Part shown: positions 33,671-37,098 of the stretch, piece by piece
Numbering within the stretch: position 1 is the stretch's first letter
How the letters are laid out: the number at the start of each line of letters is the position of its first letter
DNA from: a phage
Length of the DNA stretch: 64,000 nucleotides
NCBI GenBank assembly: GCA_027262695.1
Contig: GCA_027262695.1_4722.1
Direction: 5' to 3' (one strand)
Made by a program: the position numbers and the translations under genes
The notes under the pieces: model-generated
Database searches by the model: none
What the model was told of the DNA's origin: nothing
The model's input: the letters and a program-made list of their open reading frames with translations, nothing else

Positions 33671-34210
33671 TTAAGCTCCTTTATGCTTTGTTTTGATTGA
33701 TGATGTTAACCAGGATGATCTTACCGTAAAGCCTTCGGATTCATAGAACGCTTGGGCTTCAGCGTTATCGGCACGAACATCCAAACCGATGGCGTGCCCA
33801 CCGCAATGGTACGCGACGTTACGGGCTTCGTTCATCAAGGCATGACCAATTCCGCGTCCGCGATACTCTTGCTTTACGATAATCGACGTCACGTCATGAA
33901 TACCCATATGGCTCTCGGTGTTCACTTCCAGGAGTCCTACCGGTATTGAGGCAATAGCATCGATCATGACAATCAACATCGCGCCAGCTGGGAGACGGTC
34001 TTCCAATTCCAGGGAAGCGTACTCGTCTTTTAAACTAGGGATACGTTCTGGTAGGAAGGTATCTATCCAGGCTTCCGATTCTGCATCATCGAGAATACGA
34101 TACAGTTCACGAATCCGCTGTTTATGTGGATAGAGGTGTGGGTCAGCCGCCGTTGAAGCGATAATGCAGTGGAACGGCCGTTCATTGATGACCAATGATT
34201 TAATACTCAC
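33671..34210 (-). CDS. GNAT-family N-acetyltransferase
   Basis: 179 aa; motif A VKQEYRGRGIGHALM and downstream AEAQAFYESEGF. Confidence 0.55.
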   Translation of the reverse strand: MSIKSLVINERPFHCIIASTAADPHLYPHKQRIRELYRILDDAESEAWIDTFLPERIPSLKDEYASLELEDRLPAGAMLIVMIDAIASIPVGLLEVNTESHMGIHDVTSIIVKQEYRGRGIGHALMNEARNVAYHCGGHAIGLDVRADNAEAQAFYESEGFTVRSSWLTSSIKTKHKGA

Positions 34211-34713
34211 GCTAAGTTTTCCTCGTTTTCTAAGAGTCGATTACGATGACGTTTATACATTTGATGTAACGCTGTGATCTGATAAAATTTCTTATAGCGT
34301 CTTTCAATCCGCTTCTGCACCTCTTTCCATGGGAGTTTATCGTATTGACGATAACGATGGATTTCATTTAACATGCGGAGTCGATCAGGGTCTGTGTTCT
34401 GTATCGTCCTGAGTTTGATACGCTGGTAACCGCGTTGTAACCCCGATTCAGAATACGTCACACCGAATTCATCTTGAATTAAGGTGATGATCTCCCGCCA
34501 ACGTCGTTTCTCACCGTCGCGCAAATGCACGACCCGCGATAAAATATCGTTACGATTACGATGACTCAGCTTGATATTAAGCATTGAAGCGATCGCGCTT
34601 ATCCCTCTCTGACTCCGTCCTAACGCTTCACCGATCTCCTTTGATGTCATGACGCCAGCGTTTCGGCGTATGAATGCGATTTCGGTTGTTGTGTATTCTT
34701 TACCTGCTGCCAT
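34207..34713 (-). CDS. HTH protein, tandem paralog 6 (single-repeat version)
   Basis: Shares TTEIAFI...SKEIGEALGRS and C-terminal W.E....I...F...Y pattern with five upstream paralogs. Confidence 0.55.
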   Translation of the reverse strand: MAAGKEYTTTEIAFIRRNAGVMTSKEIGEALGRSQRGISAIASMLNIKLSHRNRNDILSRVVHLRDGEKRRWREIITLIQDEFGVTYSESGLQRGYQRIKLRTIQNTDPDRLRMLNEIHRYRQYDKLPWKEVQKRIERRYKKFYQITALHQMYKRHRNRLLENEENLA

Positions 34714-35183
34714 TTCTTACCACGTGTGTTATAATAGTAACGCTGACAAAGATGTGTGTGGTGATACTCCCGTTTGAACTCGATGCTGATAACGCGAGCA
34801 ACTTCTCTCCAGCTAACTCCTTCACGTCGAAGTACCGCAATACGACCTGAAATTTTGCACCATTCGCCCGGGTCATATCGCCGTAGCTTATGTCGTCGTA
34901 TTACAGAGGCGACACTCGCTTTCGACCGGCCAAGATGATTCGACATTTGTTTAACCGAGTATCTGTGGATATTGTTACGGATATAGGAAAGCTCATCGTC
35001 AGTATATGCCGCGTTGGTTCTCGGTGAAGGAAATAAAATATATAACTTATTCTTAATCGCGCTTTCTGTGCGTTGAAATACAGTAGCCAGATCACTAATC
35101 GGTGGTCTGGGTATTTGGTATGCGTAATTCTCGAGGCGGGAGAGTTCCTCATCTGTCCAGCGACGACACTTGCGCATGGGCAA
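34647..35183 (-). CDS. HTH protein, tandem paralog 5
   Basis: RWTDEELSRL and YTDDELSYIRNN...KQMSNHLGRS repeats. Confidence 0.55.
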   Translation of the reverse strand: MPMRKCRRWTDEELSRLENYAYQIPRPPISDLATVFQRTESAIKNKLYILFPSPRTNAAYTDDELSYIRNNIHRYSVKQMSNHLGRSKASVASVIRRHKLRRYDPGEWCKISGRIAVLRREGVSWREVARVISIEFKREYHHTHLCQRYYYNTRGKKWQQVKNTQQPKSHSYAETLAS

Positions 35184-35646
35184 CTCCTTTATTTTTCATG
35201 TGGTAATACCAGCGCTGATATAACGCATGTTTGTTCGTTACAACACCAAATTTGACGACAACGTCGTACGTAATCTCATCCCAGCTTTTCGTGACCTTAA
35301 GTCGTTCGTTAATGAAATCGAGCACACGCTGTCGTTCTTGTCGGGTTGGTGAGCGACGTATTCCGTTAAGGCGGACGAACTGACGGACCGAATCATAGGA
35401 CCGATTCAAATCAACCGCGATCTCACGTAACGTCTTCTGTTTTATTACCGACTCGATGTACGTACGTTCTTTGTTGGTATAAGGTCGATAGTTTTGACGA
35501 CGTTGTAATCCTAAACGTCTCAAACGTGTGTCGATACTCGCCTTGGTTCGATTCATCTGTTGTGCGATTTCATCGATCGATAACGTCGTGTTAGTGTAAA
35601 GATGCGCAACCGCTTCGAGATCTTTATTGCGCCACGGTCGTACCAT
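35149..35646 (-). CDS. HTH protein, tandem paralog 4
   Basis: PWRNKDLEAV...IDEIAQQMNRT and YTNKERTYIESV...REIAVDLNRS repeats. Confidence 0.55.
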   Translation of the reverse strand: MVRPWRNKDLEAVAHLYTNTTLSIDEIAQQMNRTKASIDTRLRRLGLQRRQNYRPYTNKERTYIESVIKQKTLREIAVDLNRSYDSVRQFVRLNGIRRSPTRQERQRVLDFINERLKVTKSWDEITYDVVVKFGVVTNKHALYQRWYYHMKNKGVAHAQVSSLDR

Positions 35647-36124
35647 CCTGGAGTCCTCTCTTCTTCTGATGATGCCACCATCGTTGATAGATAGCTTGTT
35701 TCGTACGCATTATACCAAAATGCGCATTAACCTGTTCGGCAATGCGATACCAATCATTCGTCTCTTTCAACAACGTGTCAACGAAGATCAGAAAGGCTTC
35801 GGTATCGTCATTGGTTAACCGTTTGAAACCGTAGCGGTGCGCGGTTACCCTAAGACTGTTTGGATCTCGGTTGAGGTCACGAGCAAGCTGTTTGTAGCTC
35901 TTACGTTTACAGTTCGCCTTGATATACTCCAATTCACGATGTGTAAAACGGTTGTGTGCTTTACGACGTTCGACGTTTAAATAGCGAAGCCGTGCTTCGA
36001 CTGCACCGAACGTCGTCTCCATGATTTCCGCAATTTCGCGAATCTTTAATCGCGGTTGCCGAAAATATAGTTCTAACAACTGATTATCGGACTTACGATT
36101 CCATCGTCGTATCGTTGGTTTCAC
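35624..36124 (-). CDS. HTH protein, tandem paralog 3
   Basis: RWNRKSDNQLLEL...IREIAEIMETT and FTHRELEYIKAN...KQLARDLNRD repeats. Confidence 0.55.
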   Translation of the reverse strand: MKPTIRRWNRKSDNQLLELYFRQPRLKIREIAEIMETTFGAVEARLRYLNVERRKAHNRFTHRELEYIKANCKRKSYKQLARDLNRDPNSLRVTAHRYGFKRLTNDDTEAFLIFVDTLLKETNDWYRIAEQVNAHFGIMRTKQAIYQRWWHHQKKRGLQDGTTVAQ

Positions 36125-36137
36125 AACGAGGTTTCTC

Positions 36138-36605
36138 CTATTCTCCGCGTCTTAGTACCTGAGTGTAGTAGAGGGCATAGACACCGCTTAACGTGTAATG
36201 GGTGTTAAATTCGTTATTGATGATATTCTGTATTTTCTCCCAGGTTCTCTTCTCTTTTCTAAGCGTGTGTATTCGGTGATAAATCATCTCTCGACGTTGC
36301 GCTTTACAGGCGACAATACCGTAACGGTAGCAGAGTTTAGCGATTGCTTCTGCGCTACGATTGAACATTACGGCAGCTTCTTTTACGCTATGTGTCTTGA
36401 GATAATCGGCTAACATCACGCGTTCATCAAAACAGCAGTAGCGATGACGTGACGCGAGTTTCCAGCGCTTGCGATTGCGGTTAATTCGACCTTGAACCGA
36501 ACCTTCCGTTCTGCCAAGCCGCTCTGCAATCTCTTGCATCGGTATACCGTTTCGATACAGGGTAATCAGCATCGCATCCTCTTCAGGTGTCCAGTCCTTG
36601 ACCAT
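36138..36605 (-). CDS. HTH protein, tandem paralog 2
   Basis: DWTPEEDAMLITL...MQEIAERLGRT repeat. Confidence 0.55.
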   Translation of the reverse strand: MVKDWTPEEDAMLITLYRNGIPMQEIAERLGRTEGSVQGRINRNRKRWKLASRHRYCCFDERVMLADYLKTHSVKEAAVMFNRSAEAIAKLCYRYGIVACKAQRREMIYHRIHTLRKEKRTWEKIQNIINNEFNTHYTLSGVYALYYTQVLRRGE

Positions 36606-36615
36606 CGTATCTACC

Positions 36616-37098
36616 TCATTGGGCGTGATAACTTAAAAGACGCCCAAGCGAGGCGGGCGTATAGTGTGTTTTGAATTCTTTGTTGATTTGCTTGGTGAGG
36701 TCCTTCCAATCGAGCTTATCTCGAAGTTGATTAACCCGATTGCAAACCGCTAATCGTTTTAGTTTGTTAATCATGATACCGTTACGATGACAATAACAAC
36801 GCACCGAATGAACACTTCGTCCGAGTTCTTCTGCAATCTCCGCTAACGTATGCGTTTCAGCAAGCTGGATGAGCCGTCGTTTCTCCTCTTGAGTATAACT
36901 CGGCATTCGTGTGGGTAAGGAACGTTCTTTACGTCGCAAACGTAAGTAACGCGCCCACACACTCTTCGGCGAACGGTTCATGCTTTGCGCGACTTCAGCA
37001 TAACTCGCATCAGGGAGTGTTTTAAGAATCCTCAGCAATGTTGCATCTTCTGCTGGCGTCCAACGTCTACCCATTGCTGCCCTCCTTAATTTTATCAA
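36616..37098 (-). CDS. HTH protein, tandem paralog 1
   Basis: [14 protein letters not shown]...[11 protein letters not shown] and [14 protein letters not shown]...[10 protein letters not shown] repeats; start overlaps ligase 3-prime end. Confidence 0.55.

Follow-up and report, generated by a model that had tools for sequence, protein, structure and literature searches.

The 64,000-nucleotide (nt) phage contig GCA_027262695.1_4722.1, referred to here as the window and the source of all coordinates unless another locus is named, carries six consecutive minus-strand genes directly behind a gene for an NAD-dependent DNA ligase. This array may well be a six-fold tandem expansion of a D5-like DNA-binding protein which, by analogy with protein D5 of phage T5, would act in replication or transcription through subfunctionalised paralogues, an interpretation held here with middling confidence. 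The genes are lettered A to F from the ligase gene onwards, and the top match of all six in the PHROG database is phrog_323, annotated as 'transcriptional regulator, D5-like', with expectation values (E) from 8e-10 to 6e-24, the latter for copy A. T5 D5 (T5.118) itself falls into phrog_323 at 1e-71, as does the D5 of Vibrio phage phi 3 at 3e-64. Profile alignment of the array family with T5 D5 using hhalign gave a probability of 91% (E 1e-6), and a hidden Markov model (HMM) of the family matches both T5 D5 (4e-11, in a small database) and phi 3 D5. A first-pass annotation of this DNA had put the array forward as an undescribed functional module, a description that cannot be kept at the level of the family, which is that of T5 D5; the array, too, sits unremarked in the genome of Escherichia phage vB_EcoM_Goslar. 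Assignment to a known family of single function had been named as grounds for abandoning the proposal, and this applies by half: D5 has been named and characterised by genetics, though not in its mechanism.

According to the T5 RefSeq record, D5 is a DNA-binding protein needed for replication and late transcription, and is involved in early shut-off; a retron sensor, too, makes use of its binding to DNA (PMC13405049). It consists of the same tandem Myb/homeodomain-like helix-turn-helix (HTH) units as the array proteins, and its gene, like copy A, lies directly downstream of, and overlaps, an NAD-dependent ligase gene within a replication block. The overlap is 8 nt from ligB to D5 in T5, 8 nt from the ligase gene to D5 in phi 3, and also 8 nt from the ligase gene to copy A in the window. 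In the 217-kilobase (kb) Bacillus jumbo phage vB_BauM_KLEB27-3 (locus L010, 3176-4300), a stand-alone Nlig-Ia gene of 120 amino acids (aa), corresponding to the NAD-binding domain of LigA, is followed by a gene for a 249-aa multi-HTH protein of phrog_323 (5e-30). The pairing of a ligase gene with a D5-like gene recurs, then, in three unrelated phage groups. There are also differences between the two systems. T5 D5 is a single gene of 255 aa with about four HTH units and an extra N-terminal part, whereas the array consists of six genes of 152-176 aa; T5 D5 also lacks the third domain (D3) of the array proteins, and an HMM of D3 matches nothing in T5, phi 3 or KLEB27-3. Furthermore, transcription in T5 is by the host RNA polymerase; Goslar-like phages employ polymerases of their own and surround their DNA with a protein shell.

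Layout and paralogy of the six genes

From the likely start codons the array spans 34207-37074, and the longest open reading frame (ORF) reaches 37098, in agreement with the earlier description of six consecutive minus-strand ORFs behind the ligase gene. The proteins listed below fall within the range of about 150-180 aa given at that time, and the longest ORFs encode 155-178 aa.

37067-39133, minus strand: NAD-dependent DNA ligase (LigA type, 688 aa), directly upstream of copy A
36616-37074, minus strand: copy A, 152 aa, two HTH units (HTH-a) followed by D3; orthologue of Goslar gp119
36138-36605, minus strand: copy B, 155 aa; orthologue of Goslar gp118
35624-36124, minus strand: copy C, 166 aa, GTG start; orthologue of Goslar gp117
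35149-35646, minus strand: copy D, 165 aa; orthologue of Goslar gp116
34647-35177, minus strand: copy E, 176 aa; orthologue of Goslar gp115
34207-34713, minus strand: copy F, 168 aa, one HTH-a unit and two D3 units; orthologue of Goslar gp114
33671-34210, minus strand: GNAT acetyltransferase, directly downstream of copy F

For copy A, the ATG at 37074 is favoured, with AAGGAGG 6 nt upstream, over the TTG at 37098 that opens the longest ORF; for copy E, the ATG at 35177 is favoured, with AAGGAG 7 nt upstream, over the TTG at 35183. Neighbouring copies had been said to overlap, which is true of C/D (23 nt), D/E (29 nt) and E/F (67 nt), while A/B and B/C are separated by small gaps of 10 and 13 nt; copy F overlaps the GNAT gene by 4 nt. 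These overlapping or nearly abutting starts and stops between the ligase and GNAT genes fit co-transcription and translational coupling. The array lies within a long minus-strand block with almost no gaps, in which the ligase and two DNA methyltransferase genes represent DNA metabolism, and it does not differ in base composition from the remainder of the window. Around the array, sigma-70 promoters and intrinsic terminators showed no enrichment over shuffled sequences.

All pairs of copies except C-F and D-F match each other in BLASTP at E values of 1e-5 to 6e-27 and 22-35% identity, with the neighbours A-B and C-D forming the closest pairs; A, B and E connect copy F to the rest. When all stop-to-stop ORFs in the window are searched with an HMM built from the six copies, it recovers just those copies, with no further paralogue at E <= 1. 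The motifs quoted in the first-pass annotation (W..E, EIA, R-S/T, YT..E and W.EI...F...Y) are visible in the alignments. Neither DNA-level repeats nor gene conversion were found between copies, and because there is no nucleotide-level similarity between them, the duplications must be ancient. The protein sequences therefore support six true paralogues from an old tandem duplication followed by diversification. This bears out the earlier suggestion of repeated duplication rather than a recent copy, the BLASTP matches being far beyond chance.

Several other observations concern the surroundings of the array. The GNAT gene follows copy F, and in T5 a Sir2-like deacetylase is encoded about 9 kb upstream of the D5 gene; that the GNAT protein might acetylate the lysine-rich array proteins is offered as an idea. 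A Dam-like (D12 class) adenine methyltransferase gene at 40397-41223 on the minus strand is split by a frameshift into ORFs 41223-40693 and 40738-40397, and the same gene is unbroken (274 aa) in the near-identical contig L004; the split could have arisen from misreading of a G run during sequencing, from decay to a pseudogene, or from programmed frameshifting.

Elsewhere in the window, the motif TTATGYTGTT occurs six times against 0.48 expected. Four occurrences lie directly after GC-rich intergenic hairpins, at 570-579, 1105-1114 and 28899-28908 on the minus strand and 53455-53464 on the plus strand, and near-variants are found in the gaps 7247-7311 and 27312-27418; the exact matches at 42188-42197 and 48730-48739 are within coding sequence and without a hairpin. 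The combined hairpin and motif sites look like terminator-plus-promoter modules. Late promoters of phage phiKZ centre on TATG.

Conservation and selection across lineages

The window comes from a relative of Goslar (NC_048170), with which the region shares 81.5% nucleotide identity; Goslar is a 237-kb member of the nucleus-forming Chimalliviridae (10.64898/2026.04.21.720040). The Goslar array comprises gp114-gp119, all annotated as hypothetical except gp119 (SANT/Myb), in the same gene order as in the window and likewise between ligase and GNAT genes. One-to-one amino acid identities between window and Goslar are 58% for A/gp119, 90% for B/gp118, 75% for C/gp117, 70% for D/gp116, 86% for E/gp115 and 90% for F/gp114. 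Two features set the loci apart: Goslar gp119 is without D3, whereas copy A of the window has it, and the unrelated 235-aa gene gp120 separates the ligase gene from gp119 in Goslar, with no such insert in the window. The annotated start of Goslar gp114 is 21 codons too short. In the metagenomic contig L005, the long ORF of copy F begins 3 nt past the preceding gene, without overlap, and its N-terminal helix is conserved.

Five independent lineages were compared: the window together with L004, the 237.5-kb IMG/VR genome L002, Goslar, and the metagenomic contigs L005 and L015. In all five, the ligase and GNAT genes enclose six copies in an unchanged order, which answers the earlier call for a comparison of copy number across related phages with an unvarying six. 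The GNAT gene directly follows copy F in L002, Goslar, L005 and L015, and also in the fragment L006. Cluster look-ups also placed members of the family on contigs some 247 kb long, and a Salmonella assembly contributed one more. Genes similar to gp120 (235-239 aa) are located between the ligase gene and copy A in Goslar (locus L001, 8743-9450), L005 (4950-5669) and L015 (3997-4716); they have no known function, and are absent from the window, L004 and L002.

Ratios of nonsynonymous to synonymous substitution (dN/dS, Nei-Gojobori) are 0.06-0.37 for every copy, which is similar to the 0.06-0.08 of the ligase gene, and all six are therefore maintained genes under purifying selection. The rate of change is nonetheless far from even along the array. 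Compared with L005, copies B and F share 85-88% identity and the ligase and GNAT proteins 84-86%, whereas C, D and E share 40-45% and A 55%; synonymous divergence from Goslar and L002 also differs by copy, from about 0.3 to 3.0. As both measures are uneven between copies, a mosaic history of the array is suggested by the sequence comparisons.

The D3 of copy A, encoded by the 3' third of the gene (36616-36770, minus strand), is found only in the lineage of the window and L004. Orthologues of copy A in Goslar, L002, L005 and L015 end after the second HTH unit (106-115 aa), so that this domain was either lost or never gained in those lineages. A terminator-like hairpin is present at 36660-36640 (minus strand) within this lineage-specific part. 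In copy D of L015 (6001-6300), an in-frame deletion removes the second HTH unit and the first helix of D3, leaving 99 aa, which hints at some redundancy in the array or at an assembly artefact.

Domain architecture and fold

The AlphaFold2 model of copy B (predicted local distance difference test score, pLDDT, 86.5) consists of three separate three-helix bundles on short linkers: D1 at approximately aa 5-53 (nt 36447-36593), D2 at aa 57-97 (nt 36315-36437) and D3 at aa 99-152 (nt 36150-36311), the bundles themselves occupying residues 7-53, 59-95 and 101-152. D1 and D2 are homologous to each other (hhalign 97%, E 2e-10), and D3 is a different module. In copy F, D3 is doubled (profile-profile probability 92%), and the model of this protein has one HTH unit followed by two D3 units. 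A beads-on-a-string arrangement of two Myb/homeodomain/GcrA-like HTH units and a lineage-specific D3, or of one HTH unit and two D3 units in copy F, is therefore strongly supported. The first-pass annotation had proposed a double-HTH architecture, which gives way here to three domains. Its conserved C-terminal region is indeed conserved, but in the model of copy B it is a third folded three-helix domain rather than a mere region. The single unit ascribed to copy F is correct as far as HTH units are concerned, and missed the two D3 units beside it. The isoelectric points of all six proteins lie between 9.8 and 10.4, and this strongly basic character is as expected of the putative DNA-binding proteins they had been taken for.

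For D3, a profile search of the PDB gave nothing significant, Pfam gave weak HTH_33 and Myb matches and nothing stronger, and a search of 5.8 billion proteins gave one further Goslar-like protein and nothing else; since none of these searches returned a significant relative beyond Goslar-like phages, D3 is an orphan at the sequence level, with a predicted three-helix-bundle fold. Whole-chain Foldseek searches of the PDB and BFVD returned single-domain or Goslar matches and no others, a limitation attributed to the flexible linkage of the domains (predicted template modelling score 0.51).

Above the Pfam gathering score, copies A, B and D match Myb_DNA-binding, Myb_DNA-bind_6, Sigma70_r4_2 and HTH_23 among them, and the other three copies have weaker HTH matches. 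For the Myb models (PF00249/PF13921), copy A reaches 41.6 bits against a threshold of 24.4, copy B lies below at 16.4 and 19.6, and C to F have no match above the cut-off. It had been asked whether the units would prove Myb/SANT-like or like sigma region 4; three-helix HTH units are predicted, and Pfam gives both types, Myb above threshold in copy A and Sigma70_r4_2 above its cut-off in A, B and D. Against solved structures, the six-copy profile matches 2LVS at 1e-8 and c-Myb at 5e-5. Tandem Myb/SANT repeats such as c-Myb R2R3, and the archaeal Cbp2 (2LVS, a double-HTH protein binding CRISPR repeats), are the best sequence-profile matches in the PDB and share with the array consecutive three-helix HTHs joined by short basic linkers. 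The array proteins differ from Myb repeats in keeping only the first of the three regularly spaced tryptophans, in adding an unrelated helical unit and in their phage-operon context; the invariant tryptophans are the first of D1 and that of D3, and I, A or L stands elsewhere, so that the Myb spacing is not observed.

The Sigma70_r4_2 matches above the Pfam cut-off in A, B and D raise the alternative that the products are RNA polymerase accessory factors, similar to sigma region 4 or to GcrA, that would steer the host or phage polymerase to promoters. Two DNA methyltransferase genes in the same block, and the need for T5 D5 in late transcription (RefSeq), would agree with such a role. However, no sigma region 2 or 3 is present in the copies and the NCBIfam sigma models score far under their cut-offs. 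GcrA of Caulobacter, and GcrA-like phage proteins, have a C-terminal sigma-binding domain that the array proteins lack, and the array repeats the HTH unit; Pfam GcrA (PF07750) is matched by copy B alone, at 15.8 bits against a cut-off of 26.9, and the structural match to GcrA is confined to the 45-residue DNA-binding domain. The phage polymerases of chimalliviruses, moreover, already have a fifth subunit in a sigma-like role (PMC12908238), and other chimalliviruses manage without the array. An accessory role of this type is considered very unlikely.

A similar weighing applies to the DNA-binding modules of mobile elements. HNH homing endonucleases and Tc3/IS630/paired-type transposases have like HTH modules and are bipartite readers of asymmetric sites, and the array could be descended from domesticated or decaying modules of homing endonucleases or IS630/Tc-like transposases, leaving either functionless remnants or immunity proteins that occupy sites and block endonuclease cutting in co-infection. 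Secondary PHROG matches connect the HTH parts to HNH endonuclease families, the N-terminus of protein P0011, an HNH endonuclease, is formed by the same double HTH, and natural truncations exist, namely copy A without D3 in four lineages and the deletion in copy D of L015. Those PHROG matches span the HTH parts alone, however, and Pfam finds no HNH domain in any copy; more broadly, the array differs from these enzymes in having no catalytic domain, and neither the copies nor their surroundings encode a nuclease or transposase domain. The number and order of genes are fixed across lineages, every copy is under purifying selection, and the tight operon packing is unlike that of free-standing mobile genes. 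Such an origin is therefore quite improbable.

Possible function and significance

If the array is a D5-like expansion, each monomer would use its three recognition helices to read an asymmetric DNA site of approximately 12-18 base pairs. On the model of T5 D5, the products would bind double-stranded DNA in the replication phase and may modulate replication, the phage transcription switch, or both. The paralogues would have diverged toward different sites or partners. Recognition-helix residues differ between paralogues and are kept among orthologues: identity in the D2 recognition helix is 0.80 within orthologues and 0.18 between paralogues. The corresponding values for other helices are 0.70-0.79 and 0.16-0.30. 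The earlier proposal of specificity variants is compatible with these paralogue-specific, orthologue-conserved residues, which occur in the putative recognition helices among others, but it is not proven by them.

Several points weigh against a D5-like expansion. In conservation, the recognition helices differ little from the other helices, and the signal is weak. PHROG 323 may already hold Goslar proteins, which would make the phrog_323 matches partly circular. What aligns with D5 is the generic HTH-pair repeat, which does so in more than one register and leaves out both the N-terminal part of D5 (residues 1-70) and D3. This HTH pair is very widespread, with 16,105 clusters at 50% identity in an exhaustive HMM search. 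The ligase link is not universal either: no family member lies within 6 kb of the ligase gene in the jumbo phages Moabite, RSL2, BONAISHI or pEa_SNUABM_54, which have the next most similar ligases; Klebsiella phage Tribble has its D5-like gene beside a Dda-like helicase gene, away from any ligase gene; and temperate Firmicutes phages also carry D5-like relatives, in gene neighbourhoods outside the comparison. The array is absent from other chimalliviruses, which places it outside the conserved nucleus-forming programme, and the literature searched has no mention of Goslar gp114-gp119 or of Myb/HTH or other transcription factors of chimalliviruses; papers on AVAST-5 and DRT4 proved to have no bearing on the array.

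Of the best 150 HTH-pair matches, the majority are 200-1,340 aa long and match in 3-10 separate stretches, and the only full-length single-stretch matches are Goslar-like proteins of 150-180 aa. The pair is repeated up to about 10 times per metagenomic protein, and in some proteins (e.g., P0012) it is fused to superfamily 2 (SF2) helicase domains (ResIII + Helicase_C), an arrangement that brings to mind T5.108, the 'replication origin binding' protein of T5 (SANT/Myb + helicase). Genes of similar size in pEa_SNUABM_54 proved to be no such array.

The target of the array proteins could alternatively be the host. As host-directed takeover factors they would remain in the cytoplasm, outside the phage nucleus, with each paralogue at its own site on the host chromosome or at its own host regulator, so as to shut down or redirect host transcription. 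In nucleus-forming phages the phage DNA is reached only by selective import (PMC12908238), T5 D5 expressed on its own is mildly toxic to Escherichia coli (PMC13405049), and the rapid divergence of C, D and E between lineages, not shared by their flanks, would fit host adaptation. The genes are, however, part of a DNA-metabolism block with the ligase and two methyltransferase genes rather than of an early host-takeover set, the array proteins contain no localisation signal, and the analogy with D5 points toward phage DNA. A host-directed function is thus judged unlikely.

Defence systems offer a further explanation for the divergence. T5 D5 triggers a type IX retron (retron-Kva2), and an AlphaFold3 model in the same study, a 2026 preprint, places D5 on msdDNA (PMC13405049). 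In an arms race in which host systems sense D5-like proteins, the copies would be escape variants or decoys and their number would track defence pressure instead of six separate tasks, and the very uneven rates, with C, D and E of L005 diverged like a cassette (40-45% aa identity) next to flanks at 84-88%, could be read in this way. Yet dN/dS is well under 1 in all copies where it is measurable, the same six orthologous positions are occupied without turnover in every lineage examined, and nothing links any defence system to sensing of the array proteins. PADLOC gave no accepted match (best E 8e-4, 17.8 bits; no stretch passes on its own). An arms-race origin is accordingly highly doubtful, and nothing favours the decoys against defence factors that had been envisaged in the first-pass annotation.

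A bolder version of the D5-like expansion, and an unlikely one, is that the six proteins form a repertoire of sequence-specific DNA readers inside the phage nucleus, together with the ligase and the non-canonical RNA polymerase of the phage, each marking its own class of site. Such sites could, for example, be promoters used at different stages of infection, or sites of replication and nicking. The non-virion RNA polymerase of nucleus-forming jumbo phages is not known to have a well-defined promoter code. The terms 'transcription factor', 'DNA-binding' and 'histone' appear nowhere in the text of a 2025 review of nucleus-forming phages (PMC12908238).

The HTH units and the D5-like family are already known, and the array is present in the published Goslar genome. 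What is new is the recognition of six Goslar-type genes as one conserved, selected array of D5-like paralogues, with a lineage-specific third domain, uneven evolutionary rates and a recurrent link to ligase. Should the proteins prove to be generic DNA coats, or dispensable, the array would be an ordinary paralogue family. T5 D5, a genetic factor known for 50 years, now has its place in a large family of repeated HTH units, which multiply inside single genes as well as by forming arrays of genes, and its link to NAD-ligase genes is a recurrent one. For the timing of gene expression in nucleus-forming jumbo phages the array provides a concrete and cheap entry point, since Goslar can be grown on E. 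coli. If the six proteins do constitute a repertoire within the phage nucleus, they would be the first dedicated set of transcription or replication factors described for a nucleus-forming phage, and the ligase and D5-like gene pair in three phage groups would mean that D5-like proteins are functionally coupled, directly, to the joining of DNA.

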